From the NCBI GenBank assembly GCA_965261545.1, contig CBDHDF010000011.1, positions 160,001-224,000 on the forward strand: DNA of 64,000 nucleotides, given 5' to 3'. The position numbers and the translations under genes are program-made. The stretch comes from Bdellovibrionales bacterium. Its GTDB lineage: Bacteria > Bdellovibrionota > Bdellovibrionia > Bdellovibrionales > UBA1609. Of the stretch, positions 20 through 39,068 are shown piece by piece; position 1 is the first letter of the stretch; every line of letters begins with the position of its first letter. The notes beneath the pieces were generated by a model. The model ran no database searches. It saw only the letters and a list, made by a program, of their open reading frames with translations, and had not been told where the DNA came from.

Positions 20-1267
20 ATGGTTCATGAAGACCTTGTTAAAGAAAAGAAAGATTCTGGTGATATTGGTATGACATCGGAGCAAGTTCTCAAGGTGGCT
101 ATTCTTAAATCCATAAGAGGTCTTTCCTATCGTGCGTTAGCCTTTAATCTTGTCGATTCAGTATCCACCAGAGCTTTTCTGGGCCTTGAATTGGAAGAAA
201 ATTACGCTCACTCCACCTTACAGGACTTGATTGTTCAAATAAGTGAAGAAACTTGGGGAATTATTAGCGCCTCTTTAGTTTCAGATGCAAGAGATCAAAA
301 GATTGAGCCGTGTAAGAAAATGAGATTGGACAGTACAGTGACGAAATCAAATATTCATCATCCAACGGATGCATCGCTTTTATATGACTGCATAAGAGTT
401 ACAGAAAGAGAATTTAAAAAAGTTCGTAAAAATGTCATGAAAGATTTTTGGCGACTTATTTCAAGAGAAGATCTTAAGAGAGCAAAAACCTTGCTTTACA
501 AAATTAATAATTCCAAAAATGATGCGGAAAGACTACCTTGCTATAAGGAGCTTTTAAAAATCGCTACCAAATTGAACAAAGGATTACCTGATACCATCAG
601 AAAGATAAAAAAAGAACAAAAATGTGTGAAGATGAATGCTTTGAAAAAGAGTCTAAAACAGTTAGAAAATGTTGCCTTCTACCTGGAAAAAATCATCTTT
701 CAAACTCAAAAAAGAGTTATTGAGGGGAAAAAAGTATCTTCTGAAAAAAAGGTCCTATCCATCTTTGAACCGCATACAGACATTATTGTAAAGGGGCAAA
801 GAGAAGTCGAGTTTGGGCATAAAATCTTTCTGACCTCAGGGCAAAGCAACATGATTTTAGATTGTCAGATCCCTGATGGCAACCCCGCAGACTCTGATAT
901 GTTTTTAAAAGTTATGAATTCAGTGACACAAACCTATGGGGCTTGCCCTGTAAAAGTAAGTGCAGATGGTGGGTTTGCTTCAAAAGAAAATCTTGAAGAG
1001 GCCAAAGAGATGGGGGCTAAAGATGTTTGCTTCCCAGAAAAAAAAGGAATGAAAATATTAAAGATGGTTAAAAGTGCTTGGGTCTTTAAAAATCTTCTCA
1101 ATTGGAGAGCCGGAATAGAGGCTGTTATTTCATTCCTTAAGAGATGTTTTGGTATGAGAGTTGCTTACTGGAAAGGGCATGATGGTTTTAAGAGGTATGT
1201 AAAGAATGCCGTTTGTGCCTATAATTTTGTTGTCTTGGCAAGACATGAATTATCAACTGTCACCTAA
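20..1267 (+). CDS. ISNCY/IS5-like DDE transposase (N-terminus MRHLKK... lies upstream of window; about 454 aa in full)
   Basis: Motifs LDSTV, SIFEPHT, EFGHK, ADGGF, RAGIEAVISFLKR. The N-terminus is visible in the copy starting at 6025. Confidence 0.85.
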   Translation: MVHEDLVKEKKDSGDIGMTSEQVLKVAILKSIRGLSYRALAFNLVDSVSTRAFLGLELEENYAHSTLQDLIVQISEETWGIISASLVSDARDQKIEPCKKMRLDSTVTKSNIHHPTDASLLYDCIRVTEREFKKVRKNVMKDFWRLISREDLKRAKTLLYKINNSKNDAERLPCYKELLKIATKLNKGLPDTIRKIKKEQKCVKMNALKKSLKQLENVAFYLEKIIFQTQKRVIEGKKVSSEKKVLSIFEPHTDIIVKGQREVEFGHKIFLTSGQSNMILDCQIPDGNPADSDMFLKVMNSVTQTYGACPVKVSADGGFASKENLEEAKEMGAKDVCFPEKKGMKILKMVKSAWVFKNLLNWRAGIEAVISFLKRCFGMRVAYWKGHDGFKRYVKNAVCAYNFVVLARHELSTVT

Positions 1268-2362: not shown

Positions 2363-2659
2363 TTTGAATCATTTGAATCCTGCATCTCTATTGGTCCTGT
2401 TTTAGGCCACCCATGCCGGAAGCTTGCTTCTACCTTGCCCTTAGACCTACCAAGAGTCTAGAAATTGAAGCGACAGCCTATATTTCTCATAAAATCATTG
2501 GATAATCCCTAGAGTGTGTCGATATCTCCTAAAGGTGAGATATTTGGACATATGTCAAGAATATTTTATAAGAAATTTGGTCTATAATTTAAGAAATTAA
2601 GTTAATTACTAGGCTTCTTGGTCCGCTAGGATATTTTTTGGAGCTACGGAGGGTGCAGG

Positions 2660-4042
2660 TTGTTACGGAATAAGCTTATGGTATCTAATAGAATGAGATT
2701 TACAAAACGATTGAAAAGAAAATTTACAAATAGTTTTAAGTGGATTGAGGGATTTTTAATTGTATTTTTAATGGGGGCCATGGGTTGTGGGGACAATGTT
2801 TTTGAATCTATAGGTGATAGCGAGACATCACCCTTGTCCAAGGGGCAATTTGATCCCACACGATTTGCATTTATAGGAGAGGTTTCTAATTGTTTGCATG
2901 TCTCCGATGGTTGGACCAATGCTTGTATATTCAGAAAAAACCCTATAGCCGATCAGGGAGGTCGTCTTCCCTCCCCCCCCCCTCTTGTGAACGCAGGAAG
3001 TGTTTTGGAGGGTGAGACCAATGAGTTGATTGGTATTACAGATGTATCGCATCTACAAACAACAGCTGTTTATTTGCCTGGAAGTCAACTGGGAAACATG
3101 GACTTTGTTATCGATTACAGTGAAGTATTCGACCCTGTCCCTCTCATTGAACCTAATAGTGATGGAAATTGGAAGTATTCCTTTTACAACGAGGAGCATT
3201 TCAATGCTCTCAATGTTCATATATTTTTTTGGGCGAACTATCTTAAGCAAAGGGTTAAGGATATTACGGGGCACTTTTATCCAGAGGGCCAGGGTTTAAT
3301 TCTTATTCCCATATTTCCTTTTTATAAAAAGAAAGTTCTCATCAATGCCCTTTGGATTTATCATCTTAACTCTCTTGTCTTTGGTCTTTCTCCATCTGTA
3401 GGAGTGGACTCCGCAGGAAAGAGTACCCATGTTCCTTTGGGTTTTGATTCGGGAATTGTGGCCCATGAAATAGGTCATGCTATTCTTGACTATGCATCTG
3501 TGGCGAAGATTCAATTCAATAAAAGTTTAGAGATGAGGGACTGCGGTAGGAGAAGGAAAGCCGTGTGTTCTAAAGATTTTCATGGAAGCCCGCGTGCTAT
3601 TCATGAGGGAGTTGGAGATATCTTGGCTCTTTTTTTGTTTCCCAAGTCCACACCTTTTGCTGAGTTGCTTGAGTATAGCCCTGAGGGCTTGGACCACTGT
3701 GGAGTTTCGAGAAATGTACAAGAAATCAAGAGTCAGAAGATCACTGCTCGCCACCTTTTTGAAGCCTGTGGAGGTCGTGTAGAGGCACCAGGAGAAATTC
3801 ACGCCATGGGTTCCATTTATAGTACTATATGGTATGGATTATTTGAAAGTGCCTTTCAGAGAGGGGGAAAGGATGAACGAGATAGGGCTTATCATTTATT
3901 TTTTGAGCATTTAAAAAATATTACAAGCAATGACACCTTCCTGACGATGAAAAAGACAATTCAAATCATTGATCAGAATCTATTTGACGGACAATTTTCA
4001 GAAGATCTGGATAGAGAATATAGTTTGATGGGTTACCAATAA
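2660..4042 (+). CDS. Secreted/lipoprotein zinc metallopeptidase (M36/M4-like gluzincin)
   Basis: Lipobox MGC; VAHEIGH (HEXXH), downstream HEGVGD and GEIHAMG motifs. Exact start uncertain. Confidence 0.75.
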   Translation: MLRNKLMVSNRMRFTKRLKRKFTNSFKWIEGFLIVFLMGAMGCGDNVFESIGDSETSPLSKGQFDPTRFAFIGEVSNCLHVSDGWTNACIFRKNPIADQGGRLPSPPPLVNAGSVLEGETNELIGITDVSHLQTTAVYLPGSQLGNMDFVIDYSEVFDPVPLIEPNSDGNWKYSFYNEEHFNALNVHIFFWANYLKQRVKDITGHFYPEGQGLILIPIFPFYKKKVLINALWIYHLNSLVFGLSPSVGVDSAGKSTHVPLGFDSGIVAHEIGHAILDYASVAKIQFNKSLEMRDCGRRRKAVCSKDFHGSPRAIHEGVGDILALFLFPKSTPFAELLEYSPEGLDHCGVSRNVQEIKSQKITARHLFEACGGRVEAPGEIHAMGSIYSTIWYGLFESAFQRGGKDERDRAYHLFFEHLKNITSNDTFLTMKKTIQIIDQNLFDGQFSEDLDREYSLMGYQ

Positions 4043-4044
4043 GT

Positions 4045-5397
4045 ATGTCTATAGAAGACAGGAAGGTTCTTTGGTACAAGTTTCGTTCTATAGGTATTGT
4101 TGGTATTTTTAGTATTGTCATAGGTATATGTGTTGTATCTCTTCTTATCGCCTGTGGAAGAACTCCATTTGAAACACAATCGTCTTCATCCCAAGGAAGG
4201 ATCACTCAATTTAAGAGCTTAGGGAAGGTGCCCAACTGTTTGTATACATCAAATTCCCTCGTCAATGCTTGCATATTTGGTAAAAACCCTGTGGTTGATC
4301 AAGGAACTGTCCTTTCCAACCCACCTCTTGTCAATGCCGGTAGTGTTGCTTTGGGAAGAACCACTGAATTGATTGGAATCACAGATGTGTCATCTCTTCA
4401 AACTCATGGTGTTTATATTCCTGGAACAAAATTAAGCAACACTGATTTTAGTGTCAACTATGAAGGTATTTTCTCTCCTCTTCCTCTTATGGTTCCCAAT
4501 AGTGATGGCAATTGGAAATATACCTTTTACAATGAAGAAAACTTGAATGCTCTCAATGTTCATACGTTTTTTTGGGCGAATTATCTCAAAAAAAAGATTA
4601 AAGACCTCACAGGTAGTTTTTATCCAGAGAACCAAGGCTTGAATCTTGCCCCCATTCTTCCTTTTGATCGAAATGGGGTTATATCCAATGCATTTTGGAT
4701 TTCCAGCGTCAAATTGCTTGCTTTTGGCCTTTCTGCGCCTATAAGAAAGGACTCTATGGGTGGGGCCACTTATATCCCCCTAGGGTTTGATTCGGGAATT
4801 GTGTCCCATGAGATAGGGCATGCCATTCTCGATTATGCATCTTTTTCTGAACTTGGATTCAACTCAGACTTGGAGAACCACTGTGGTGAGAGCCAAAAAC
4901 AGGTTTGCTCTAAAACCATCCATGGAAGTCCTAGAGCTATTCACGAAGGAGTGGGAGATATCGTCAGTCTTTTTTTGTTCCCTGAATCTACGCCCATAGG
5001 CGAATTATTCTACAATGACCTTGAAGGTCTGTCCCATTGTACCGTTGGTGGAAGTGGAATTTCTAGGGATGTGAAGGTCATCAGAAGCCAAGGGTTGGTA
5101 GCCCAAGACTTTTTTGATGCTTGTGGAAAACACAGTCTTGAGGCATCTGGAGAGATCCATGCCATGGGCTCCATTTATAGTACGATATGGTATGGGGTTT
5201 TTCAAAAGGCTCTTGAGAGAGGAGGAGAGGGTGAGTGGGGAAGGGCGTATCAACTTTTCTTTGAGCATTTAAAAAATATTACAAGCATGGATACTTTTGA
5301 TACACTACAAACAACGATCAAAAATATTGATAACCAGCTTTTTGAAGGGGGTTTTTCAAGCGATTTAGATAGCGAGTATAAGCGTATGTATGAGTGA
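4045..5397 (+). CDS. Paralogous lipoprotein zinc metallopeptidase (tandem duplicate)
   Basis: Lipobox LIAC; VSHEIGH, HEGVGD and GEIHAMG motifs; aligns by eye end-to-end with the preceding gene. Confidence 0.75.
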   Translation: MSIEDRKVLWYKFRSIGIVGIFSIVIGICVVSLLIACGRTPFETQSSSSQGRITQFKSLGKVPNCLYTSNSLVNACIFGKNPVVDQGTVLSNPPLVNAGSVALGRTTELIGITDVSSLQTHGVYIPGTKLSNTDFSVNYEGIFSPLPLMVPNSDGNWKYTFYNEENLNALNVHTFFWANYLKKKIKDLTGSFYPENQGLNLAPILPFDRNGVISNAFWISSVKLLAFGLSAPIRKDSMGGATYIPLGFDSGIVSHEIGHAILDYASFSELGFNSDLENHCGESQKQVCSKTIHGSPRAIHEGVGDIVSLFLFPESTPIGELFYNDLEGLSHCTVGGSGISRDVKVIRSQGLVAQDFFDACGKHSLEASGEIHAMGSIYSTIWYGVFQKALERGGEGEWGRAYQLFFEHLKNITSMDTFDTLQTTIKNIDNQLFEGGFSSDLDSEYKRMYE

Positions 5398-16028: not shown

Positions 16029-16682
16029 AGATCCCCACTTTTGGGGAAGGAACTCGCCAGTTATCCACAAAATTTATCCACAGCAGCACTGCGTTGCTAG
16101 ACATCGGGGTCACAGCCGCAGTGTCGCCATGGATAAATTTATGGATAACTGGCTTTTACCGTACTATTTGCTCGTCACTCTCGCGGAGCTTTAGACATTA
16201 GCTGCGCCAAGGAATCCTGAAAAATACTCCATTTACCTCTGCCATAGGGCTGAAGGATGCATTTGGGGTCATGCCAAAAGTGGTGGGCAGAAAATCATTC
16301 CTCAGAATCTTGTGGCATAGTCCGAGTTAAATGATGAGCAAAATAAAGACACTTGACTAAACTCTGAACGAAGAATAACTAAATCAGTACATCATCAACT
16401 GGCCGTTTTTCATTGGCGACGGCTTCTAAAAATGGCCAATTTTAATTGGCGCCTAACATATCGTGCGTTAGCCTTTAATCTTGTCGATTCAGTATCCACC
16501 AGAGCTTTTCTGGGCCTTGAATTGGAAGAAAATTACGCTCACTCCACCTTACAGGACTTGATTGTTCAAATAAGTGAAGAAACTTGGGGAATTATTAGCG
16601 CCTCTTTAGTTTCAGATGCAAGAGATCAAAAGATTGAGCCGTGTAAGAAAATGAGAGTGGACAGTACAGTGACGAAATCAAA

Positions 16683-17044
16683 CGAGTCCATTACTTAATA
16701 CCCCCGTCAACGACAGAGGTTTTAGAGAGCTAAGGGTCACGGACCCCTCCCATCCCCTTTATAGGAAGTCATTCAAGGTGATTTCCATACCTAAAAATCA
16801 GAAAAAATCTACTTTTGCTTTTGTTCAATACAAGAACCACATGACGCTACGCATACCATTGGCTTCTACCAATCTGAACCCCAATCTCTACGATAGGCAG
16901 GCCCCAAGCAAACTTGGTATAGTTGCAATTCAGGAGCTAATTTCACTGACTCAACAACTGGAAGAGCAACTATGTCAATTACACCAAAAGATGTCTGGCC
17001 AAGACTGCCAAAAGAAATTCAAAAGCAAGTCATCAAAGACTTAA
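16683..17044 (+). CDS. Small accessory protein of E (resembles DUF5372/Y4bD-type), lacking its start codon in the integrated state
   Basis: Frame is open to the left junction; the motif VTDPSHPLY lies upstream of the first usable start (GTG 16778). Confidence 0.6.
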
Positions 17045-17208
17045 CTTTAGCCATTGAGGAGATTATATATGAAAACATCGGAATTGATTACACCTATTCA
17101 CTTAAAGAGAAAAGCCATAATATACATCAGACAGTCGACCCCTCAGCAAGCCATCAAAAACAAAGAAAGTCTCGACCTTCAATACTCACTCAGGCAAAGA
17201 GCTACTGA
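16972..17208 (+). CDS. Small hypothetical protein overlapping the LSR start
   Basis: ATG with GAAGAG upstream; identical in both E copies. Confidence 0.35.
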   Translation: MSITPKDVWPRLPKEIQKQVIKDLTLAIEEIIYENIGIDYTYSLKEKSHNIHQTVDPSASHQKQRKSRPSILTQAKSY

Positions 17209-19114
17209 ATTAGGTTGGCAAGAAGATAGTATTGAAATTGTCGATGATGATTTGGGGATCACAGGAAGTAGTATACAGTTTAGAGAAGGCTTCAAGAATA
17301 TCCTTGCAGAAGTGACCTTGGAAAAAATTGGTATTATTCTATCGTACGATGTCACTCGTCTATCTAGAAACTGTACGGACTGGTACCAATTACTTGATCT
17401 GTGTGCTTTTAAGAATTGCCTCATTGCTGATAGAGAGTCTATTTATAACCCTTCTAATGTTAATGGAAGAATGTTACTCGGGTTTAAAGGTCAACTCTCA
17501 GAAATGGAATTATTTACGATACGCAATAGATTAACAGCAGGTCTTCTCAACAAAGCCAAGCGAGGAGATTTAGCTCTTAAATTACCAGTTGGTTTTATTC
17601 GAACAGAACAAGGTAAAGTGCTAAAAGATCCAAATAAAGATTTACAAGATCGCATAAATTTAGTATTTACTATATTCTTAAAACTGAAATCAGCCGGTAA
17701 GGTGTCGCGATTTTTTAACGATAACAACCTCTTACTTCCAAGAGTTGATTTTGTAAAAAGTATTCATTGGAAAAAAACATCCAAGGCAGCCATACTTTCT
17801 ATTTTGAAGAATCCAGCTTATAGCGGAACTTTTGTATATGGCAAAGCTGAATACCGTAGAAAAGACTTAGCTGGAAAACTTAAGCGTACAAAGCTTCCAC
17901 TTAATGAATGGAAAATTGTTGTGAAAGATAAATATCCTAAATATATCGATTGGAATACATTCTTAAAAATACAAGAAATTCTAAAAGACAACTACACTGA
18001 ATATACTCGTAATAAAACAAGAGGCATACCTCGCCCTGGTAAGGCCCTCTTACATGGGATAGTCTATTGTGGAGAATGTGGCCACAAAATGTCAGTGCAG
18101 TATAAAACAGCAACTCGATACTTATGCAACTATCTACGCCAACAACATCGGGAACCTACTTGCCAATTCATTCCTACAGATCCAATCGATGATTATGTAG
18201 TAAACACTTTTTTTAAGGTTCTTTCCCCTGTCGAGCTAGACTTGTATGCCAAGGCTTTAGAAAATAAGTCAAAAATTGACCAAGAGGTTTACAAATCACA
18301 CATTCAGCAAATTCAGCGTTTAAGGTATGAAGCTCAACTGGTAGAAAAGAGGTATCGCAAAGTAGACCCTGAGAATAGACTTGTTGCAGATGAATTAGAA
18401 ACACAATGGGAAGAGGCTTTAGTAATACTTAAAAAAGCCGAAGATCACCTAGAGAGGGTTAAGAATGAACAGCGTATTCCAACTGTGATCTCTCAAAAAA
18501 TGAAAAGAGAATTTTCAGATTTGAATCAAAAACTACCTTCGCTATGGGAGGATAAGATATTGACCAAAGACATGAAAAAGAAAATTCTTAGAACATTGGT
18601 TGAAAAGGTTGTCATTCACAGAAAGAAAAGAGATATGGTTGCACTGAGAATTGTTTGGATTGGAGGAGATACAACAGAAGCTAGCATTCCAATCAAAGTT
18701 GGATCTTTTGATGAACTGTCATCTTCTGAAACGATAAAGAAAATAATTGCGCAGCAGGTCAAGCTTGGGGTGTCTGATGAAGATATTGCCAAACTATTGA
18801 CCCAAAAAGGATTCAGATCACCAATGGATACCACTTTTCTCAGAAATACTGTGAAGTCCTATAGACTAAACAATAAAATCTATCGGAATCGAAAGCACTC
18901 TTTTCCGACCAAAGTCGAGGGAAGCCTCACAACATCTCAAATTGCAGCACTTATTGATGTTAAAGTTCATTGGATTTATCACCATATTAAACAAGGGAGG
19001 ATCATTGTCAAAAAACACGAGAAAACAAAGGCTTATCTCTTTCCAGATAAGAAAAAAACCATATCTGACTTTAAAAAACTTAAGTCCGGATCAATTAAAA
19101 AGCTACGTTACTAA
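17069..19114 (+). CDS. Large serine recombinase (resolvase + recombinase + Zn-ribbon + coiled coil + C-terminal HTH)
   Basis: Catalytic YIRQS, TRLSRN, ILKNPAYSG, CGECG...C...C; GAGGAG RBS before MKTS. Confidence 0.92.
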   Translation: MKTSELITPIHLKRKAIIYIRQSTPQQAIKNKESLDLQYSLRQRATELGWQEDSIEIVDDDLGITGSSIQFREGFKNILAEVTLEKIGIILSYDVTRLSRNCTDWYQLLDLCAFKNCLIADRESIYNPSNVNGRMLLGFKGQLSEMELFTIRNRLTAGLLNKAKRGDLALKLPVGFIRTEQGKVLKDPNKDLQDRINLVFTIFLKLKSAGKVSRFFNDNNLLLPRVDFVKSIHWKKTSKAAILSILKNPAYSGTFVYGKAEYRRKDLAGKLKRTKLPLNEWKIVVKDKYPKYIDWNTFLKIQEILKDNYTEYTRNKTRGIPRPGKALLHGIVYCGECGHKMSVQYKTATRYLCNYLRQQHREPTCQFIPTDPIDDYVVNTFFKVLSPVELDLYAKALENKSKIDQEVYKSHIQQIQRLRYEAQLVEKRYRKVDPENRLVADELETQWEEALVILKKAEDHLERVKNEQRIPTVISQKMKREFSDLNQKLPSLWEDKILTKDMKKKILRTLVEKVVIHRKKRDMVALRIVWIGGDTTEASIPIKVGSFDELSSSETIKKIIAQQVKLGVSDEDIAKLLTQKGFRSPMDTTFLRNTVKSYRLNNKIYRNRKHSFPTKVEGSLTTSQIAALIDVKVHWIYHHIKQGRIIVKKHEKTKAYLFPDKKKTISDFKKLKSGSIKKLRY

Positions 19115-20341
19115 GGGGGTATCAACATGAGTGATCAAATATTCATCATCCAACGGATGCATCGCTTTTATATGACTGCATAAGAGTTACAGAAAGAGAA
19201 TTTAAAAAAGTTCGTAAAAATGTCATGAAAGATTTTTGGCGACTTATTTCAAGAGAAGATCTTAAGAGAGCAAAAACCTTGCTTTACAAAATTAATAATT
19301 CCAAAAATGATGCGGAAAGACTACCTTGCTATAAGGAGCTTTTAAAAATCGCTACCAAATTGAACAAAGGATTACCTGATACCATCAGAAAGATAAAAAA
19401 AGAACAAAAATGTGTGAAGATGAATGCTTTGAAAAAGAGTCTAAAACAGTTAGAAAATGTTGCCTTCTACCTGGAAAAAATCATCTTTCAAACTCAAAAA
19501 AGAGTTATTGAGGGGAAAAAAGTATCTTCTGAAAAAAAGGTCCTATCCATCTTTGAACCGCATACAGACATTATTGTAAAGGGGCAAAGAGAAGTCGAGT
19601 TTGGGCATAAAATCTTTCTGACCTCAGGGCAAAGCAACATGATTTTAGATTGTCAGATCCCTGATGGCAACCCCGCAGACTCTGATATGTTTTTAAAAGT
19701 TATGAATTCAGTGACACAAACCTATGGGGCTTGCCCTGTAAAAGTAAGTGCAGATGGTGGGTTTGCTTCAAAAGAAAATCTTGAAGAGGCCAAAGAGATG
19801 GGGGCTAAAGATGTTTGCTTCCCAGAAAAAAAAGGAATGAAAATATTAAAGATGGTTAAAAGTGCTTGGGTCTTTAAAAATCTTCTCAATTGGAGAGCCG
19901 GAATAGAGGCTGTTATTTCATTCCTTAAGAGATGTTTTGGTATGAGAGTTGCTTACTGGAAAGGGCATGATGGTTTTAAGAGGTATGTAAAGAATGCCGT
20001 TTGTGCCTATAATTTTGTTGTCTTGGCAAGACATGAATTATCAACTGTCACCTAAATTTATCCATTAGGAATAACAGCAATGGACCAGGTCGAAGGTGCT
20101 AAAATCTTCCAAAGGTAGGGGTGCGTCTTCAAATCGAAAAAACTAGGGCGCAAGTCGCTTAAAGACCTTTTTCCCCTTAATCTGTAGAGTTTGTGTGGCA
20201 AATCTCCAACTCTCACTCCCCCATTGAGGCATTGGGAGGCTCAATGGGGAGTGTCAGAGAACAAAAAATGGGCCTTTCTGGACAGAAACTACTTAAAATT
20301 GCGACAAATCATGTAATATTAGTAGGACTTGATAGTATTAT

Positions 20342-22915: not shown

Positions 22916-23993
22916 CCCTTTGGATAGTTCAGATAGTTCAATAAGGAACAACAATTTAAAAATGAAGCACAACTATTTACATAAGATAGACTGGCTGGAT
23001 GGGGAGAAAGTTCGGCCTTATGTATTTTTTCGTCAAGGAAACGAAGTGAAAGACCCTGGAAGTCGCTTTCATTGTGACTGGTTTCCCTTTGAACCCATGG
23101 GTTTGGATTCTCTAAAGATAAGTAGCCTTGATTTCTCCGAACATATTCTCAATATGGAGCATAGAGCCTTTCGTAGCTCTCAAATGCCCATACCCCGGTG
23201 GGCCTTTTATGATTGTGCATTGATGCCGGGTTTTGTTTCGGGCTTTGCCCATAGAACCTCTATGTTATCCAAGGAATGGATAGAAGCCTTGGGAAATCGT
23301 TCTCAGATTGAGTGGACTCCCATTTCTCTTTTTATCATTATCCCCACCATGGGTGAGGGAGAGTGGATGGCTCATAATCTTTGCTCTATGAATACTTTGA
23401 TAAAGAAAGAAAGCCGTTACTATGGGTTGGGATTTTTAACCAAGGCTTTTGGTCTTTGGTATGCCAATGTTGAAACCTGTTGTGGTGTGACTCAGTGGAC
23501 TAGCCCCGCTCTTCGTCTCCATGCCCACTATGGAGATGGAAATTTTATCATCTTACACTCTAGTTCACGATTACGCTCATACCTTGTTAGGCGCCAATTA
23601 AAATTGGCCATTTTTAGAAGCCGTCGCCAATGAAAAACGGCCAGTTGATGATGTACTGATTTAGTTATTCTTCGTTCAGAGTTTAGTCAAGTGTCTTTAT
23701 TTTGCTCATCATTTAACTCGGACTATGCCACAAGATTCTGAGGAATGATTTTCTGCCCACCACTTTTGGCATGACCCCAAATGCATCCTTCAGCCCTATG
23801 GCAGAGGTAAATGGAGTATTTTTCAGGATTCCTTGGCGCAGCTAATGTCTAAAGCTCCGCGAGAGTGACGAGCAAATAGTACGGTAAAAGCCAGTTATCC
23901 ATAAATTTATCCATGGCGACACTGCGGCTGTGACCCCGATGTCTAGCAACGCAGTGCTGCTGTGGATAAATTTTGTGGATAACTGGCGAGTTC

Positions 23994-25892
23994 CCTGAAA
24001 TCCCTAAAAGTTGTAACTAGGTGTAGGACTTAAGTCCTGATTATTGTCTGAGAAGGCCTTCACTTTGATTAAGAGATTGTCATCTCTTCAAAAGCATAGT
24101 TACAATATTAACGATGTCATACACTTTTGAGCAAAAAAATAAGGGAAAAACCTATGTCTATAAAGTTGAAAGCTTTTGGGACAAGGAAAAAAAGCAGGCC
24201 AGGCAAAAACGCATCTACCTTGGAAGAAAGGATGAGTTTACAGGTCAAATTAAGACCAAAAGAAAAAAGATTCCCATAGGCTCCTATAATGTGGGAGCCT
24301 TATTTTTCTTAGAGAAAATATGCGAACAACTAAATCTTCTAAAAACATTGTCTAAAATTTATCCAGATAATTACGAACATTATTTGCATTTAGCTTTTTT
24401 TAAAATAATCAAAAGAGAGCCCTTTTATCTTTACGATATGTGGTGTCAAGAAGCTTATGTTTCAAAGAAAAATTTTATGTCGTCACAAAAAATAAGCAAT
24501 CTCTTATGTGATCTTGGGAGAGATCAAAAAAAGATAGAATCTTTCTTTAGCGAATGGATAAATCAAGTGAAGGGTTCTGGTACGGTAATGTTTGACATCA
24601 CATCCTTTTCTTCCTACTCTATGAATAATGAATTTTTAGAGAAAGGTTACAACAGAGATGGAGAGAATCTCGAACAAATAAACTTAGGTCTGATAAGTAG
24701 GAAATCTGAAGACAATAAAACTCATACGCCTATAGCGTACAGAATCTATCCTGGAAGTATACCGGATGTCAAAACTTTATCGAATATTATTGAGATCATA
24801 ACAAGTTATAAATTAGATTTAGATTGTTTAGTTATGGATAAGGGTTTTTCTAGTGTAGAAAATATTAAGGGACTGCATCGTAAGGAATTGAAGTATTTGA
24901 TACCCATGAGTTTTAGAACAAAACTCTCAAGAGAGCTTGCTGTGGCTTTAAATGAGAAAATAAAATCTCCATCATGCTCTTTTACTTTTAATGAGGAAAT
25001 TTATTCGCATTGCAAAGAATCAATAAAAATCGGAGGATTTGATTGTACGGCTCATATTTTCTTAGACAAAGAAAGAAGGGTTTATGAGGAATCTGTGTTA
25101 ATGAAAGAGTTGCTTGATTTTATGAAACTCTTTCTTGAGAAAGATTTGAAATCAGAAGAACAAGCTAGTTCCTATATGAAAGAAACTTTAGGAAATAAAA
25201 AAAGGTTTCTCAATATCTCTGATTGCACTCCATTTAAGATTTCTTTAAATGAAGAAAATATTAATGAAGAATCTTCTACGCTGGGTATTATGATATTAAT
25301 TACAAATAGTCATGATTTAAAGAAAACAAATATATTGAGTTTATATCGAAACAAAGATATCATTGAGAAAGTATTTTTCTCATTCAAGCATGATATTAAT
25401 GGAAGGAGAAGTCGAGTTCATTCTCTCATGAATATGAGGGGAAGCATCTTTATTAATTTTCTCTCTTTAATTTTAATTTCACATATTGATACTGTTATGA
25501 AAGATAAGAAGTTATATAAAAAAATGTCTAAAATAGAAATTTACAAAATGATGGACCGATTAAAATTTTATGAATTAGCTACAGGTGATCTGATGCTTGG
25601 AGAGCTGTCTAAAAAACAAAAGGATATTTTTTCAGCCTTCCAAATAGATGGGCTTCCCAAGACAAAATGATGTTTTTTATCTGTTTCAAATGTGACGGTG
25701 GCTGTGGCTACCACTATGCCTCATCTATCCAATGGGGACGAAGAGGACCTTTCGCAGCAAATTCTTATGAATCATATTAAATATATTAATACTATTAAAC
25801 CTCTCAAACCGTTGACAGCAGCCAATTCCATAGGAAGAGAGGAAAGTTAACGCAATACATTAAACCTAGTTACAACTTTTAGGGATTTCAGG
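23994..25892 (+). mobile_element. IS1634-family element F (1899 bp)
   Basis: Perfect 29-bp IR CCTGAAATCCCTAAAAGTTGTAACTAGGT; 6-bp TSD GAGTTC. Confidence 0.9.
24114..25670 (+). CDS. IS1634-family transposase
   Basis: KGKTYVY...IYLG N-terminus; FDITS, GYNRD, QINLGL, MDKGF and YRNKDIIEKVF motifs. Confidence 0.9.
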   Translation: MSYTFEQKNKGKTYVYKVESFWDKEKKQARQKRIYLGRKDEFTGQIKTKRKKIPIGSYNVGALFFLEKICEQLNLLKTLSKIYPDNYEHYLHLAFFKIIKREPFYLYDMWCQEAYVSKKNFMSSQKISNLLCDLGRDQKKIESFFSEWINQVKGSGTVMFDITSFSSYSMNNEFLEKGYNRDGENLEQINLGLISRKSEDNKTHTPIAYRIYPGSIPDVKTLSNIIEIITSYKLDLDCLVMDKGFSSVENIKGLHRKELKYLIPMSFRTKLSRELAVALNEKIKSPSCSFTFNEEIYSHCKESIKIGGFDCTAHIFLDKERRVYEESVLMKELLDFMKLFLEKDLKSEEQASSYMKETLGNKKRFLNISDCTPFKISLNEENINEESSTLGIMILITNSHDLKKTNILSLYRNKDIIEKVFFSFKHDINGRRSRVHSLMNMRGSIFINFLSLILISHIDTVMKDKKLYKKMSKIEIYKMMDRLKFYELATGDLMLGELSKKQKDIFSAFQIDGLPKTK

Positions 25893-25919
25893 GAGTTCCT
25901 TCCCCAAAAGTGGGGATCT

Positions 25920-26702
25920 CTAATGAACTTCTTTGGTTGAACTTTCCTCTTTGCTCTGTTTAGACTTGGCTTTTGCCGATTCGGTTCTCCAACTTTCTTT
26001 TCCTTCAATGTTGAGGGTTTCACAGTTGTGAATGATTCGATCAACAGCAGCAGCGGTGGTAATAGGGTTAAGAAACACCTTATCCCATTCAGAGTATGTT
26101 AAGTTTGTAGTGATCATGAGACTTTTCCTTTCATATCGCTGAGATATGAATTGAAAGAAAAGATCTGCCCCCTCTGTGCAGGAAGCTGTATAGCCAAGTT
26201 CATCACAAGCAATAAGATCAAAACGGTCTAATTTCTTAAAAAGAGCATTCAATGAGAGTTCTTTCTTGCTTTCACGCATTGTTTCAATAAGTTCATGAGT
26301 GGTGACCCATAAACATCGATAGCCTTGTTCACAGAGTGAACGAACTAGGGACATGGCCAAATGACTTTTCCCCATTCCAAAGCTTCCGTAAAACACAACA
26401 TTACAGGCTTTTCTGACCCACTCTCCCTCTGCCATCCAATTAATTTGCTGAGCTGTCACTCCCGTTCTTTTCTGGAAGTTATAAGTTTGGAGTGATTTAA
26501 GTTGAGGAAGCTTGGCCCCCTTAAGCAATCTTTTCACTCTCTGGGAATGCTTGTCAGCAAGCTCATTTTGAACGAGTATACCTAAATACTGTTCATACGT
26601 CTTTTTTGTTTTTTCGGCAACTCTAGCCGTTGCAACATATTCATCCGCCATCGCTGGAAGTCGGAGTTTTTTAAGAGAACCTATAAGTTCTTCGTGATTC
26701 AT
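25920..26702 (-). CDS. istB: IS21 helper ATPase IstB
   Basis: Same protein as the other C copies. Confidence 0.93.
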   Translation of the reverse strand: MNHEELIGSLKKLRLPAMADEYVATARVAEKTKKTYEQYLGILVQNELADKHSQRVKRLLKGAKLPQLKSLQTYNFQKRTGVTAQQINWMAEGEWVRKACNVVFYGSFGMGKSHLAMSLVRSLCEQGYRCLWVTTHELIETMRESKKELSLNALFKKLDRFDLIACDELGYTASCTEGADLFFQFISQRYERKSLMITTNLTYSEWDKVFLNPITTAAAVDRIIHNCETLNIEGKESWRTESAKAKSKQSKEESSTKEVH

Positions 26703-28168
26703 TAAGAACCTCCTATGTTTGGAACAAGACTGTCATATTGAGACAATCTAGGTTGAAGTGGTTTTTGTTGGTCATTCAAATTAATTTTGGTGGGATTTCC
26801 TAAGAGCAAATCTTTTATGGATTTAAAGTCGAAAATCTCACGACTTTCTAATTGAAGCTCCATGGCTGTAGATAAGTCCTGCCAACTCACATGCTGAATC
26901 AAGTTGATAACTCTTAAATATTCATGCTCGGCACGGCTTGAATCTTGTTGCTTGAGGTATTGATAAAAATTTTCAAACACATTTGTTGGAAAAAGAATGG
27001 ATCGGTGAGCCCATCTTACCATGGCTTGCGGCTTACGAACTAAAGAGGGAAGGATATGTTCAAGAAGAAGACTATGCTCCCCATCAGGTTTTCTTTGATG
27101 GCGAGCGACAATTTCTTGCTTCCCTCCTGCACGATAGATCGTGACATGATAGGGACCCTGTACGGTTTTACAGGGAGCTTGGATCACCTCATCAGGTATG
27201 GAATATGTGGTTTTACCTATTCTCAAAGTCCCATAACCATTACTTTGACAAATATTCACCTTACAGAGAATATCTTCATCTCGTGGAGGCAAAGGCTTAA
27301 GAACTTTGGCCTCCTCCTCAAAGCGAGATTTGGTGGAGTCACTCTGATGCTGATCCATATAAGACTCTAAAAACTGATTCAAATGATCCCAGTCTTTAAA
27401 AACAATTCCTTTGTTTCTAACAATATTTTTTATCCGAGAACTGAAGGTTCGAATATCACGCTCCACATCTCCCTTGTCAGAGCCCTTCCCTGCGCGGCAG
27501 GGAAGAACCTTAAATCCATAGTATTGGATGGCTCGATCAAAAGATTGGGTGTAAATTCGCTGATTTCCTTTAAGAACTTTCTTCACACAGGGAGATAAAT
27601 TATCAATACGGATGTTCGCACTCATCCCACCTATCTTTTCAAAAAAAGCATGCACCCCATCGATGAAACACTCATAGACAAGAAAGGGGTAGGCACGAAC
27701 CCAACAGGTGCCACTACAAGGCAATGTTCCAAAATGGAGATGAACGATCTGAACACCATCGGCAAATGGTAAAGCAACCTTCTCCTTAAAATCAAACTGA
27801 GCCTGTTCTCCAGGATCATATCTTTGGCTGAAAAAACGCTCCTTGGGGCGAGAACCAAGAATCTCACAAACTCTTCTCTGAACCGTTCTCTCACTCCCAC
27901 GATAACCCTCCTCAACTAATAGCTCATATATTTCACGGGCGGTGTTACTTGGGTTCAACTTCAAAAAGTACTTCACCCGATCCATATATCCATTAAGGGG
28001 ATCTGGGCGAGTTCTTTTGGACCTCGCCTTGTACTTCGGTGGGGTGTTGGACTCACAGTACTTGCGCACCGTCTTACGATTGATCCCTAATTCACGAGAT
28101 ATTTCTGTCTTATTTTTACCACTGTGACTCAGGTCACGAATGCGGCCGAAAGTGTATTGACTAATCAT
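26702..28168 (-). CDS. istA: IS21 transposase IstA
   Basis: Intact copy; start set at MISQY. Confidence 0.92.
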   Translation of the reverse strand: MISQYTFGRIRDLSHSGKNKTEISRELGINRKTVRKYCESNTPPKYKARSKRTRPDPLNGYMDRVKYFLKLNPSNTAREIYELLVEEGYRGSERTVQRRVCEILGSRPKERFFSQRYDPGEQAQFDFKEKVALPFADGVQIVHLHFGTLPCSGTCWVRAYPFLVYECFIDGVHAFFEKIGGMSANIRIDNLSPCVKKVLKGNQRIYTQSFDRAIQYYGFKVLPCRAGKGSDKGDVERDIRTFSSRIKNIVRNKGIVFKDWDHLNQFLESYMDQHQSDSTKSRFEEEAKVLKPLPPRDEDILCKVNICQSNGYGTLRIGKTTYSIPDEVIQAPCKTVQGPYHVTIYRAGGKQEIVARHQRKPDGEHSLLLEHILPSLVRKPQAMVRWAHRSILFPTNVFENFYQYLKQQDSSRAEHEYLRVINLIQHVSWQDLSTAMELQLESREIFDFKSIKDLLLGNPTKINLNDQQKPLQPRLSQYDSLVPNIGGS

Positions 28169-29408
28169 AAGATCCTCCTCATTGCTAACCTTTTGAGTTG
28201 CAAGAGGGAGGGACTCTGTGAGCTTAGTATCTATATCAGAAGAAGAGACTTCATTGTCTAGTATTTGAACACTCCCTGAAGATTGGTCACTTTTCATTGG
28301 CGACAACCTCCATATTGAAAGTGGGACATTTTAATTGGCGACGGCTTTAAGGGAAGCCTGTCTTTAGAAAGAAATTCCATGAAAATTGAGGCAAATGTTG
28401 GAATCTTGTGGAATTTAAATACTTTAGAAAATGGGCACACCTAAACAGGCTTTTCTTGACTATATATTTAACCTCATTGAAATCCAGAAACAGTCTACAA
28501 ATGACAAATATGGAACCTGAATAGGCTGTCATGGAAGGACTCTCCAACACGGAGCCCCTTTCCAGGTCGACAAGAACCCAAAAGGAGTTCTTATCAGCTC
28601 GGAGCCTTTTTATGAGTAATATCAATTGATTATATGCGTCTCGGTTGACAATGCCAAAAATCACCATAGGTCCTCCTCTGAAAAGTGGCCACTTTTCATT
28701 GGCGACGGTGGGGCATTTTAATTGTCAGCTAACATACCTTGACTTATCGCTTGAAGGTGAATGCAAACTATTGGGAGTCTTTTTTTACTGGCCAATTTCA
28801 TTCAGGTTTTACCAGAAAGTATCATAAACAGAATTTTGATCTAAACCATCAATCAGCGTCGAGTTTGATGAATCTTCAAGAAAAGATTGAGATGGGTGAG
28901 GGGCCTTTTTATCTCCATGCTTCAGACATGAGTCGCCATAAATTGGAGGGAGCACTCCCCCTTTATCAAATGGCATGAAAAAAAGCCCTATTGTGATTGT
29001 TCAGGTTGTAATTTCTTCTTAGAAGTGGAATCGAATTTTTTGTGGAAAAGAAATTTGGAAGGTACAGCCTTCCAATTACCAGTGTTTAGAGAAATTCTAT
29101 AGTCAGTAGGACATCCACCACGGCCTGTTCCTGCCACACGGTACAGCAAAGCCATCGCAAGATGAAATCTAGGACCCTGAAAATAATGAATTTCAATACT
29201 TTTATTTTCAGAAGGTGCAAATACATAAGGCTGAGAGGTACAGCGCCACCTCGGAGAATGAAGAGAGTCATCTTGGAGAATAGTCTTTCCGTCGAGAATA
29301 ACTCTCATTCCATCGTCAGAGACCATGGCAAACTCATAGGACTTTGATTTTGATCCATTGTTGGGCATAATAAATCCTGAAATACGCAATGAGAACCACT
29401 CATAGAGT

Positions 29409-30825
29409 CAATGCCGTTTCCTTAAGAAAAATCTCTTGAAATTATTAGATAAATCGACAAGAATAAGACTTGTTTTATTTTACACCCAACCCTCAACCAA
29501 GGAGTAAGTCACATGCAATCCAATATTGATCTCGAAAGCCCCCAAATGACGAGTTCGCGTCACAGATGACCATTTTATTCTACCAAAACTTGATTCTTCC
29601 TTCAAGCCAGAGCACCTTGTCGATCCAGAAAAACAAAAAAGGAATCGAAAATTTAATCCTCAAATTTTCTTTTTTACTATTATCTATCTTATTTCCGGAA
29701 CAAATTACGAAGGCTACCAAATCGCTCTTAAGACGGTATGGACTCATTTTGGTGACCTGCTTCTCATGCCAGTCAAAAGCAGTCTCAGCAAGATACGTCA
29801 AAGTATTTCTTACCTATTTTTTAAAAATATCTTTGAATCTCTGATTACAGACTACGAACCATTGAGAAAAACGTTTCATGGCTTTTATATCTATGCCATA
29901 GATGGCGACCAATTAGCACTTCCTCGCTCTAAAGATCTTTTAAAGGAGGGTTATTGTGGGTACCCTTGCCCAAATGAGATGGAAACTCATTTCTTACGTA
30001 TGTATCTATCTCATGCTTATGACGTTTTATCGGGTGTGACAAAGAATCTTTGCTTTTCTCCCGCTCTCAACGAAATCGCCAATGCTATTCAAATGATAGG
30101 TAGTTTTGAGAGTAATAGCATAACTCTCTACGATAGGCTTTATTTATCTACAGAGATTATTAAGGCCCATGCTCAAGCCAGTAACTTCTTTATTGCGCGT
30201 TGTAAGCGAGGCTCTACTTTTATCCCCATCGTAAATTTATTTAATGGCCCAGGTTGGTATTCACAAATGGTTATTGAGGGGGTGGTCATTCATCTCTATA
30301 AGTATAAAAACCCAAAGACTGGGGAGTTCTCTGTTTTGGCCACTAATCTTCCGCATGGCTCCTTGGACAAGAAGGATATGGTTGCTCTTTACTCTCGTCG
30401 TTGGGAAATAGAAACGACATTTCGTGATTTTACATCGACAATGAAAATGGAGCAGTGGCACTCAACAAGCCTTAATGGAATATTGCAAGAGCTGTATTCT
30501 TATTTTTGGCTCTTCAATTATACAAAGATTCAAATGAGCATAAATGAGGATGAAGACAGTGTGAATCAGTTGGTAAAAAATGACTACAAAAAACCTAACT
30601 TTAAACTGATTCTTGATTTCATAATGGATAGCATCCCCCTTTTTGTTGCGGGGCTCTATCAGAAATTTAGGAAGCAGATAAAGTTGCTGATGAAGATTTC
30701 AATGGAGAAGAGGAGGCACTTCAAAAGAAGCTATGAAAGGTCTATCAAAAGGGCTGGGAGTTCTTTTAAAAGAAATAGCTTAACGCAGAGGCAGAGGGGT
30801 GTGGTGGCTTAAGGAAACGGCATTG
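29409..30825 (+). mobile_element. IS4 element B, uninterrupted copy (1417 bp)
   Basis: 18-bp IRs; 11-bp TSD ACTCATAGAGT. Confidence 0.93.
29766..30812 (+). CDS. IS4-family transposase (frame open about 70 codons further upstream without a standard start)
   Basis: IDGD, YDRLY and YSRRWEIETTFR motifs. Confidence 0.85.
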   Translation: MPVKSSLSKIRQSISYLFFKNIFESLITDYEPLRKTFHGFYIYAIDGDQLALPRSKDLLKEGYCGYPCPNEMETHFLRMYLSHAYDVLSGVTKNLCFSPALNEIANAIQMIGSFESNSITLYDRLYLSTEIIKAHAQASNFFIARCKRGSTFIPIVNLFNGPGWYSQMVIEGVVIHLYKYKNPKTGEFSVLATNLPHGSLDKKDMVALYSRRWEIETTFRDFTSTMKMEQWHSTSLNGILQELYSYFWLFNYTKIQMSINEDEDSVNQLVKNDYKKPNFKLILDFIMDSIPLFVAGLYQKFRKQIKLLMKISMEKRRHFKRSYERSIKRAGSSFKRNSLTQRQRGVVA

Positions 30826-31226
30826 ACTCATAGAGTGTATCACCATTTAGGTCTTTAATAAGGGTTCCATCATTGGTTTGAAATCCGTCTTCAAAATATA
30901 GAAAAGGGGTATTGACTTGATTCAAATGGATAAGAGTTGGAATTCTCGTGCCATGTTTCAAATAGCCATCGAGTTTCTTATTATATTTGGTTTGAGAAGA
31001 ATTCAGGTAATATATATATCCAGCAAGTCCGTTGGATGAAGTGGAGCATTGTGAATTTTTAAATGGATTACAGATAATTTCCACGGTGTTTACGTTCCAA
31101 GAATGACTTTTTTTGCTGGTATCGCCATTGTTATCAACAGCTACGACATGAAAACTATGTGTTCCAACACGAAGATTTGTTAGAGTTTCTGAGTGGGATG
31201 CTTGGCAGCTCCTAGGCTCTTCGTCA

Positions 31227-33689
31227 TTTGATCACTCATGTTGATACCCCCTTAGTAACGTAGCTTTTTAATTGATCCGGACTTAAGTTTTTTAAAGTCA
31301 GATATGGTTTTTTTCTTATCTGGAAAGAGATAAGCCTTTGTTTTCTCGTGTTTTTTGACAATGATCCTCCCTTGTTTAATATGGTGATAAATCCAATGAA
31401 CTTTAACATCAATAAGTGCTGCAATTTGAGATGTTGTGAGGCTTCCCTCGACTTTGGTCGGAAAAGAGTGCTTTCGATTCCGATAGATTTTATTGTTTAG
31501 TCTATAGGACTTCACAGTATTTCTGAGAAAAGTGGTATCCATTGGTGATCTGAATCCTTTTTGGGTCAATAGTTTGGCAATATCTTCATCAGACACCCCA
31601 AGCTTGACCTGCTGCGCAATTATTTTCTTTATCGTTTCAGAAGATGACAGTTCATCAAAAGATCCAACTTTGATTGGAATGCTAGCTTCTGTTGTATCTC
31701 CTCCAATCCAAACAATTCTCAGTGCAACCATATCTCTTTTCTTTCTGTGAATGACAACCTTTTCAACCAATGTTCTAAGAATTTTCTTTTTCATGTCTTT
31801 GGTCAATATCTTATCCTCCCATAGCGAAGGTAGTTTTTGATTCAAATCTGAAAATTCTCTTTTCATTTTTTGAGAGATCACAGTTGGAATACGCTGTTCA
31901 TTCTTAACCCTCTCTAGGTGATCTTCGGCTTTTTTAAGTATTACTAAAGCCTCTTCCCATTGTGTTTCTAATTCATCTGCAACAAGTCTATTCTCAGGGT
32001 CTACTTTGCGATACCTCTTTTCTACCAGTTGAGCTTCATACCTTAAACGCTGAATTTGCTGAATGTGTGATTTGTAAACCTCTTGGTCAATTTTTGACTT
32101 ATTTTCTAAAGCCTTGGCATACAAGTCTAGCTCGACAGGGGAAAGAACCTTAAAAAAAGCGTTTACTACATAATCATCGATTGGATCTGTAGGAATGAAT
32201 TGGCAAGTAGGTTCCCGATGTTGTTGGCGTAGATAGTTGCATAAGTATCGAGTTGCTGTTTTATACTGCACTGACATTTTGTGGCCACATTCTCCACAAT
32301 AGACTATCCCATGTAAGAGGGCCTTACCAGGGCGAGGTATGCCTCTTGTTTTATTACGAGTATATTCAGTGTAGTTGTCTTTTAGAATTTCTTGTATTTT
32401 TAAGAATGTATTCCAATCGATATATTTAGGATATTTATCTTTCACAACAATTTTCCATTCATTAAGTGGAAGCTTTGTACGCTTAAGTTTTCCAGCTAAG
32501 TCTTTTCTACGGTATTCAGCTTTGCCATATACAAAAGTTCCGCTATAAGCTGGATTCTTCAAAATAGAAAGTATGGCTGCCTTGGATGTTTTTTTCCAAT
32601 GAATACTTTTTACAAAATCAACTCTTGGAAGTAAGAGGTTGTTATCGTTAAAAAATCGCGACACCTTACCGGCTGATTTCAGTTTTAAGAATATAGTAAA
32701 TACTAAATTTATGCGATCTTGTAAATCTTTATTTGGATCTTTTAGCACTTTACCTTGTTCTGTTCGAATAAAACCAACTGGTAATTTAAGAGCTAAATCT
32801 CCTCGCTTGGCTTTGTTGAGAAGACCTGCTGTTAATCTATTGCGTATCGTAAATAATTCCATTTCTGAGAGTTGACCTTTAAACCCGAGTAACATTCTTC
32901 CATTAACATTAGAAGGGTTATAAATAGACTCTCTATCAGCAATGAGGCAATTCTTAAAAGCACACAGATCAAGTAATTGGTACCAGTCCGTACAGTTTCT
33001 AGATAGACGAGTGACATCGTACGATAGAATAATACCAATTTTTTCCAAGGTCACTTCTGCAAGGATATTCTTGAAGCCTTCTCTAAACTGTATACTACTT
33101 CCTGTGATCCCCAAATCATCATCGACAATTTCAATACTATCTTCTTGCCAACCTAATTCAGTAGCTCTTTGCCTGAGTGAGTATTGAAGGTCGAGACTTT
33201 CTTTGTTTTTGATGGCTTGCTGAGGGGTCGACTGTCTGATGTATATTATGGCTTTTCTCTTTAAGTGAATAGGTGTAATCAATTCCGATGTTTTCATATA
33301 TAATCTCCTCAATGGCTAAAGTTAAGTCTTTGATGACTTGCTTTTGAATTTCTTTTGGCAGTCTTGGCCAGACATCTTTTGGTGTAATTGACATAGTTGC
33401 TCTTCCAGTTGTTGAGTCAGTGAAATTAGCTCCTGAATTGCAACTATACCAAGTTTGCTTGGGGCCTGCCTATCGTAGAGATTGGGGTTCAGATTGGTAG
33501 AAGCCAATGGTATGCGTAGCGTCATGTGGTTCTTGTATTGAACAAAAGCAAAAGTAGATTTTTTCTGATTTTTAGGTATGGAAATCACCTTGAATGACTT
33601 CCTATAAAGGGGATGGGAGGGGTCCGTGACCCTTAGCTCTCTAAAACCTCTGTCGTTGACGGGGGTATTAAGTAATGGACTCGTTTGAT
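31227..33689 (-). mobile_element. LSR element E copy 2
   Basis: Near-identical to copy 1; TTTGAT at both junctions; the two flanks come from different loci. Confidence 0.88.
31252..33297 (-). CDS. Large serine recombinase
   Basis: One visible substitution versus copy 1 (VNTFF/VNAFF). Confidence 0.92.
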   Translation of the reverse strand: MKTSELITPIHLKRKAIIYIRQSTPQQAIKNKESLDLQYSLRQRATELGWQEDSIEIVDDDLGITGSSIQFREGFKNILAEVTLEKIGIILSYDVTRLSRNCTDWYQLLDLCAFKNCLIADRESIYNPSNVNGRMLLGFKGQLSEMELFTIRNRLTAGLLNKAKRGDLALKLPVGFIRTEQGKVLKDPNKDLQDRINLVFTIFLKLKSAGKVSRFFNDNNLLLPRVDFVKSIHWKKTSKAAILSILKNPAYSGTFVYGKAEYRRKDLAGKLKRTKLPLNEWKIVVKDKYPKYIDWNTFLKIQEILKDNYTEYTRNKTRGIPRPGKALLHGIVYCGECGHKMSVQYKTATRYLCNYLRQQHREPTCQFIPTDPIDDYVVNAFFKVLSPVELDLYAKALENKSKIDQEVYKSHIQQIQRLRYEAQLVEKRYRKVDPENRLVADELETQWEEALVILKKAEDHLERVKNEQRIPTVISQKMKREFSDLNQKLPSLWEDKILTKDMKKKILRTLVEKVVIHRKKRDMVALRIVWIGGDTTEASIPIKVGSFDELSSSETIKKIIAQQVKLGVSDEDIAKLLTQKGFRSPMDTTFLRNTVKSYRLNNKIYRNRKHSFPTKVEGSLTTSQIAALIDVKVHWIYHHIKQGRIIVKKHEKTKAYLFPDKKKTISDFKKLKSGSIKKLRY

Positions 33690-34004
33690 TTCGTCACTGT
33701 ACTGTCCACTCTCATTTTCTTACACGGCTCAATCTTTTGATCTCTTGCATCTGAAACTAAAGAGGCGCTAATAATTCCCCAAGTTTCTTCACTTATTTGA
33801 ACAATCAAGTCCTGTAAGGTGGAGTGAGCGTAATTTTCTTCCAATTCAAGGCCCAGAAAAGCTCTGGTGGATACTGAATCGACAAGATTAAAGGCTAACG
33901 CACGATAGGAAAGACCTCTTATGGATTTAAGAATAGCCACCTTGAGAACTTGCTCCGATGTCATACCAATATCACCAGAATCTTTCTTTTCTTTAACAAT
34001 GCAA

Positions 34005-38620: not shown

Positions 38621-38648
38621 TAATATGGTAAAGCAATCACCTAGTCAT

Positions 38649-39020
38649 GCCTCTGTGGCGGAATTGGTAGACGCGCCGGACTCAAAAAGTTCTCCGTCCA
38701 ACAGTGAAAGGGAATTTGCAAAGAGATAAAATGGTAGGCATTTCAGCGGCTTGCAATCTGTTTTTGCATCCATCTGAAAGCCTAAAAATAAGGAACGCAA
38801 CATATACGCAACAAGCCTCTGTGGCGGAATTGGTAGACGCGCCGGACTCAAAAAGTTCTCCGTCCAACAGTGAAAGGGAATTTGCAAAAGAGATAAAATG
38901 GTAGGCATTTCAGCGGCTTGCAATCTGTTTTTGCATCCATCTGAAAGCCTAAAAATAAGGAACGCAACATATACGCAACAAGCCTCTGTGGCGGAATTGG
39001 TAGACGCGCCGGACTCAAAA
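38649..39020 (+). repeat. Tandem 166/167-bp repeat, each unit starting with the 5' 39 nt of tRNA-Leu
   Basis: GCCTCTGTGGCGGAATTGGTAGACGCGCCGGACTCAAAA at 38649, 38815 and 38982. Confidence 0.92.
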
Positions 39021-39068
39021 TTCGGTTCTGGTAACAGAGTGGGAGTTCGATTCTCCCCGGAGGCACCA
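38982..39068 (+). tRNA. tRNA-Leu (CAA)
   Basis: Cloverleaf with GGTAGAC D-loop, CTCAAAA anticodon loop, long variable arm, GTTCGA T-loop and encoded CCA. Confidence 0.95.

Follow-up and report, generated by a model that had tools for sequence, protein, structure and literature searches.

The clostridial transposons Tn4451/Tn4453 (TnpX) and Tn5397 (TndX) are moved by a large serine recombinase, and in the Tn4451 type the circle joint forms a promoter for the recombinase. The y4bA-y4bD and y4pH-y4pK repeats of Sinorhizobium fredii NGR234 also contain a large serine recombinase, accompanied by small neighbours including a DUF5372 protein; the repeats have four genes and are ~3.5 kb long. For serine integrases, the accessible part of one study describes an outer motif at attP positions 16-24, and the same motif 5 bp further inward on attB (PMC3783163). 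Multi-targeting large serine recombinases (LSRs) are defined, in the accessible part of Durrant et al. 2022, by over three clusters of target genes per recombinase cluster, and DUF4368, found in 63% of the multi-targeting clade, is typical of it but not required (PMC10083194). Here we describe element E, a small LSR element in a 64,000-nt stretch of DNA from a Bdellovibrionales bacterium (contig CBDHDF010000011.1). This stretch is called the window, and plain coordinates count from its position 1, while C2, C7, C10 and C11 are contigs of its source genome. E interrupts the transposase gene of an ISNCY element, named A, and one of its own genes is split across its two ends.

E carries three genes (Table 1). 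The catalytic domain of the recombinase matches PF00239 (E-value 7e-20) and contains the serine nucleophile; Ser22 in the motif YIRQS is invariant across 50 aligned homologues. Matches to PF07508 and PF13408 exceed the cut-off, and four cysteines are present (CxxC at 333-336, Cys352 and Cys364). No match to DUF4368 was obtained at E-value 0.1. When the ends of E are joined, the arms GGGGGTAT (19115-19122) and ATACCCCC (16698-16705), which are exact reverse complements, are separated by 32 bases, and the centre of the joint is the AA at 19138-19139. The first of these arms abuts the recombinase stop (19112-19114) and is the Shine-Dalgarno (SD) site upstream of the ATG at 19127. The original prediction, which was made from the letters of the window alone, had claimed an LSR and an attP with exactly these arms, this N32 spacer and this centre, one arm being the SD sequence; the coordinates hold, and the resolvase, recombinase and zinc-ribbon domains are found by profile. 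In 200,000 random joins of genome DNA a symmetric run of at least 8 within 25 bases, with seven registers allowed, was reached 454 times, which gives a chance estimate for the arms. The attP position of the outer arm (16-23) agrees with the zinc-ribbon-domain (ZD) motif at 16-24 given in the accessible part of PMC3783163. The small open reading frame (ORF) that overlaps the recombinase start is kept in frame and position in 92 distinct relative sequences; it has no family match in profile searches and none in the atlas. A promoter-like site at 16894-16923 was rejected as an internal promoter of E, as six such sites were found against 7.8 expected and the extended -10 is not conserved.

Table 1. 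Features of elements E and A and of their surroundings in the window
Feature	Position	Strand	Remarks
Empty attB in intact element A	327..374	+	AA core 350-351; ATCAAA 346-351
Element A left part, ISNCY transposase gene	16459..16682	+	truncated upstream
attL core, AA crossover dinucleotide	16681..16682	+	left junction; core equality across family sites
Element E copy 1	16683..19139	+	2457 bp
P' half-site	16683..16705	+	outer 8-bp arm 16698-16705 = positions 16-23 from core; predicted zinc-ribbon-domain motif
DUF5372-like gene body	16685..17044	+	without own start; 124 aa after joining ends
Small ORF, 78 aa	16972..17208	+	overlaps recombinase start; ~35 conserved N-terminal residues
Large serine recombinase, 680 aa	17072..19114	+	resolvase, recombinase and zinc-ribbon domains; weak C-terminal HTH
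P half-site	19115..19137	+	outer arm 19115-19122 = Shine-Dalgarno site; ATG 19127-19129 opens the gated (DUF5372-like) gene
attR core, AA crossover dinucleotide	19138..19139	+	right junction
Element A right part	19140..20291	+	flanks E copy 1
1732-bp duplicate of C7:144073-145804	22916..31226	-	three pieces split by later IS insertions; off-target AA to IS4-type end
Element E copy 2	31227..33683	-	1 difference in 2457; left junction in A, right in unrelated host gene
Element A left part beside copy 2	33684..33999	-	flank

An intact copy of element A lies near the window start. Its transposase (20-1267) reaches 388.6 bits with NF033593 of NCBIfam (cut-off 325) and is thereby assigned to ISNCY; E interrupts this gene a few codons past the conserved D-S-T motif. 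The source genome holds 48 empty and 10 filled A sites. E is present in it at 11 loci: eight copies are full-length and 99.8-100% identical, one is interrupted, one consists of a right part and one of a left tip. All of the 10 left and 9 of the 10 right junctions (19/20 in total) are found at the one site in the ISNCY gene, which together with a single unrelated host gene makes two target genes. The genome-wide junction map that the original prediction had proposed revealed a fixed ATCAAA at all 10 right ends and no true target duplications; the empty attB in element A, placed at 346-351, indeed contains ATCAAA.

The crossover point is given by the right junction of copy 2. In the intact host gene (C7:145802) AA stands just before the break, and the mismatch to E occurs one base further left. 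The off-target site shares exactly AA with the end of E, and therefore the crossover is pinned and the 6-bp ambiguity at A is narrowed to its two central bases, as in the attP drawn with an AA crossover. ATCAAA was considered as a target duplication and rejected, since it occurs in all 10 right ends, yet the unrelated target shares only AA. The second right flank at 31227 had been called dissimilar, which is correct: it shares 10/40 positions with the main attB, and 62% of random AA sites reach that level. The claim of a multi-targeting enzyme was not borne out. E differs from the multi-targeting clade, for which more than three clusters are required by the definition (PMC10083194): it has two target genes, a single site accounts for 19 of its 20 junctions, and it has no DUF4368. 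It resembles that clade in its one off-target junction and in relatives that use several unrelated targets, and the label suits some of these relatives better than E. E probably prefers one site, straying only rarely to other AA sites, and does not count as multi-targeting in the published sense.

Some further observations concern the copies of E and A and their sites. One E copy (C11:318702-326874) is interrupted at a point 14 bases inside its left end, right ahead of the outer arm, by an insertion which, from its GTGCG start and typical 3' end, we take to be a group II intron. The same intron start occurs at three other loci, one of them behind the same ATTACTT, so this is probably an ordinary target match. 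The host gene at the off-target junction (C7 near 146000) contains a proline-rich repeat array. In several A copies the sequence next to the right end resembles A's own end, and six copies have one flank in common, which suggests IS ends or a repeated target as insertion sites of A. The load of insertion sequences (IS) in the source genome is extreme: one IS4-type element has ~115 copies, and the ISNCY element and an IS21 element have ~58 copies each. For element A there was no match among the plasmids searched.

Relatives of E are widespread. At least 5000 proteins match the recombinase at E-value 1e-50, the closest with 76-77% identity, and rhizobial plasmids account for 448 homologue records at ~44-52% identity. 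Among 60 relatives and 400 phylum genomes no homologue passed the thresholds applied, the phylum scan scoring at most two candidates per genome; a first genome scan with a single protein gave no match either, and the 90% cluster of the E recombinase is represented by one genome. The family sample consists of the best 80 matches from each of two scans and includes related genomes. From it 163 loci were retrieved, 147 of them with a full recombinase; after E was added, a recognizable right end was present in 133 of 148 loci and both ends in 115, corresponding to 109 distinct sites, of which 100 have flanks of at least 30 bases and form the family site set. Symmetry and an end profile served to locate the ends, and the reading frame was not used. 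The relatives share the three-gene layout and element lengths of 2426-2569 bp, and E-type ends recur among them. Perfect arms had to be rejected as a requirement: all eight positions match in only 1 of 90 distinct elements, which is E itself, and 5 or 6 of 8 match in 78. The family attP has a conserved motif at 12-22 in both arms, although the logo of the right arm is partly set by the search pattern. The core is identical on both sides in 96/100 sites (93 AA, and one each TC, GA and TT); the stretch shared by element and target comprises 2 bases in 41 sites, 5 in 39, 6 in 13 and 0-7 in the other 7.

A further feature of the family is the split gene. The ribosome-binding site (RBS) and the first codons of the DUF5372-like gene are located at the right end of E and the body at the left end. 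Joined ends give an ORF of at least 100 aa in 88 of the 90 distinct elements, and moving the joint by one or two bases gives such an ORF in none of them. None of 81 gene bodies has its own ATG before the conserved motif, and the distance of the joined gene's ATG from the recombinase stop is between -25 and +14 in 79/85 cases. The gate is apparently the physical split of the gene; a sigma-70-like site across the joint, looked for by consensus scan only, was present in 0/90 elements. The mRNA pairing of the SD in E is 0.83 on the circle and 0.65 in the integrated form. An SD-hiding hairpin of the circle was rejected as a family feature, with a value of 0.66 against 0.70 for shuffled left ends. 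The original prediction had further placed attP-bound recombinase over the RBS and start of this gene, which stands as far as the DNA is concerned; it fails as a block of the RBS, since the RBS works on mRNA, and the bound enzyme could at most act as a transcription roadblock. PF17342 (DUF5372) is matched at E-value <=0.1 by 44 of 80 aligned members (best 1e-5), while E's own protein does not match; in the atlas the top matches of the latter are DUF5372 clusters (score 0.93). Its predicted fold is a small SH3/KOW-like beta-barrel with a helix (mean pLDDT 75), and fold and sequence searches gave no clear match (best Z 5.0, no Foldseek match at E-value 0.001).

The majority of the sampled relatives are inserted in genes of group II intron reverse transcriptases (RTs). 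Both flanks belong to such a gene in 78 of the 100 sites, one flank in 8 and neither in 14. The strict RT motif is present at 74 loci; 43 of these with long open left flanks were scanned with profiles, and 42 of them match a group II RT/maturase profile, best TIGR04416, from position 135. The matches are half proteins and are hence below the whole-protein cut-off. The insertions in RT genes are antisense and lie in the Phe codon of the motif D-I-x-x-x-F-D (a Phe-Asp codon pair), and in the sole case in sense orientation the right core is TT, in accordance with the dinucleotide rule. For arm positions 15-19 of attP, the best match to one half of the RT target is obtained with a shift of 5 bp (0.54; next 0.38). 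The targets other than RT genes comprise IS3 (2 loci), ISAs1 (1), a methyltransferase-like flank and a dctP gene, and two rhizobial copies lie, by annotation, among IS66 genes. Two sister relatives (L038 and L041) in IS3 transposase genes have the cores TC and GA, which are reverse complements, and are inserted near the same IS3 profile position in opposite orientations. One sequence-identical Microvirga element occurs in three targets (three copies examined), including the dctP gene and an RT gene; the third is presumably the tail of an IS630 transposase. Eight Wolbachia copies of identical length (L194-L204) are found at varied sites and have one stop codon each in the matched frame. A left flank is common to three of them and a similar right flank to three, which points to rearrangements between copies. 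The Microvirga and Wolbachia elements look promiscuous. In a tree of 91 proteins RT targeting occurs in every subclade, and E sits on a long branch together with two homologues (support 1.0). Rooted at the midpoint, this tree of best hits, related genomes included, suggests RT genes as the ancestral target.

The ends of E, the quasi-palindromic joint centred on AA, the 2-bp crossover without duplication, the filled and empty targets and the split gene are all directly visible in the DNA. We consider it probable that E moves via an excision circle by recombination of attP and attB at AA, with a strong preference for ISNCY, rare off-targets and a pro-integration protein that is made on the circle only. 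The recombinase would excise E as a circle (attL x attR) and thereby restore the target, and the circle, which carries attP, would integrate at an attB whose core is AA. A transcript passing the recombinase stop would enter a whole, translationally coupled DUF5372-like gene on the circle only, and since the gene is whole only there, its protein would report the excised state. Most likely it would tip the recombinase towards integration. For an excision cofactor, which would be produced in both states, the small overlapping ORF is the best candidate. The family lives mainly inside other mobile elements, and the lineage of E would have switched to the conserved ISNCY motif. In assembled contigs from four runs of one sample the only joint was the skip joint, for which the empty A copies account; the circle joint and the off-target junction were both missing. 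Forms that are rare or of low depth drop out of such contigs, which are uninformative in this respect.

Several points weigh against this reading. The circle, the activity of the enzyme and the roles of both small genes are deduced from sequence. The number of independent insertions is uncertain: one left-flank allele occurs in 5 of 10 filled and only 3 of 48 empty A copies (p 0.002), which indicates that some copies spread as an A-plus-E composite or via recombination. The attB of E is only modestly like attP, with 10 of 26 positions against 8 for the off-target site and 12 and 13 for the two types of empty RT sites, and 15% of random AA sites score at least as high as attB. The empty RT site types thus outscore the attB in A, and likeness of sequence does not account for the preference for A. 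The other half of the RT target shows no peak at shift 5 and peaks elsewhere, and the shifted motif is weak in the attB of E. Finally, the relatives compared are the best 80 matches of each of the two scans, related genomes included.

A relaxed, multi-targeting enzyme could have produced much of this pattern if E had entered A only once or twice, the composite had then been moved by the A transposase and the flanks had been shuffled by recombination. The left allele enriched in filled copies, the off-target site that resembles the main attB no better than chance, and the Microvirga and Wolbachia elements at their varied sites all fit such a history. It implies, however, that independent targets are about as often outside A as in A, and 19 of 20 junctions are at one site, no E copy in the source genome has both flanks outside A, and E is in none of the 11 intact RT-motif sites conforming to the family consensus, in a genome with 30 RT-domain matches. 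Moreover, four right-flank haplotypes occur in the filled A copies, all four recur among the empty ones, and a filled and an empty copy have haplotype and outer right flank in common, which favours several independent insertions (the right flank listed for the A copy at C10:8482 belongs to its neighbour and was excluded from these counts). We regard the relaxed enzyme as improbable. The opposite view, in which E is strictly single-site and the junction at 31227 came about by mis-assembly or through an IS-driven rearrangement that happens to end at the tip of E, draws on the anatomy of copy 2: A still flanks it on the left, its reciprocal junction is missing and an intact host gene is present at another locus. 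Given the A flank and the missing junction, the present arrangement requires a second event, either recombination between E copies or an IS-driven step. The duplicated piece also terminates at an IS end, and single-sided flanks are seen in 8 of the 100 relative sites as well. Against an artefact, the break falls exactly on the predicted core, where the donor has AA (AA makes up 10% of the dinucleotides), the site starts with TGA as in the P and B half-sites, and the 1732-bp duplicate has acquired IS insertions of its own, which argues against a simple chimera. This explanation, too, seems quite unlikely to us.

Less easily set aside is the question of what the DUF5372-like protein does. Instead of setting direction it could serve in target capture, shut off transcription of the circle, or be an excision factor that is kept off to stabilize the insertion; an SH3/KOW-like fold with weak matches names no function, and we hold such another role to be a real possibility, if short of an even chance. 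An excision factor made only after excision would, however, be needed before it exists, and the circle-only layout, conserved in 88 of 90 elements, is a further point against a protein without a role in directionality.

The surroundings of E are rich in IS elements and lie beside a probable integrative conjugative element. At 38646-39055 three repeats of a tRNA-like 5' segment adjoin a tyrosine recombinase gene, and FtsK-like, replication-relaxation, VirB9 and VirB4/TraC-like genes follow at 39092-61470; the region 38646-61470 is probably an integrative conjugative element with tandem att remnants. A gene in the window contains a proline-rich tandem 15-bp array (54674-54838). Two paralogous metallopeptidase-like genes are located at 1691-5397, and this block has a diverged second copy on C2.

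Compared with the described systems, E is like the Tn4451 type in being a non-phage element with a single large serine recombinase and a presumed circle, whose joint creates an expression signal. In E, however, the joint completes a reading frame, no junction promoter was found by consensus scan, there is no cargo, and the targets of its family are genes of other mobile elements. From the y4bA-y4bD repeats E is set apart by description only, having three genes in 2.46 kb as against four genes in ~3.5 kb. With the phage-type large serine integrases (LI/A118, Bxb1, phiC31), as far as the accessible part of PMC3783163 describes them, E shares the domain order, a quasi-palindromic attP of ~48 bp, the 2-bp crossover and the outer motif (here at 16-23); a 5-bp inward shift is seen in one half of the RT target of the family and not in the other. 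It differs from them in being without phage genes, in its size of 2.46 kb and its many copies, in an att arm that doubles as RBS and in the gene split across the ends. The accessible text and supplements of PMC10083194 name neither RT genes as targets nor DUF5372. A description of the E family was not found in the literature outside subscription journals, and passages from PMC11376236, PMC9203015 and PMC10680173 do not concern it; tables of the Durrant preprint or IS databases may list members. Only tentatively, and with more doubt than confidence, do we suggest that E stands for an undescribed, widespread class of minimal elements on the catalytic-motif codons of mobile hosts, which might be retargetable between group II intron RTs, ISNCY, IS3 and ISAs1 with a fixed attP and might possess a circle-only direction protein. 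If so, target choice of E would depend on something beyond the likeness of attP and attB, for example on one of its two small proteins.

E provides a natural, fully delimited set of recombinase, attP and attB, and a single genome contains its filled, empty and off-target sites. As the members of the family differ in target and keep nearly the same attP, target choice and switching could be tested by swaps between members. The elements form a layer of parasites of parasites, which knock out intron RT and transposase genes in a way that is in principle reversible, and in them recombination itself would act as a switch by making a gene whole.

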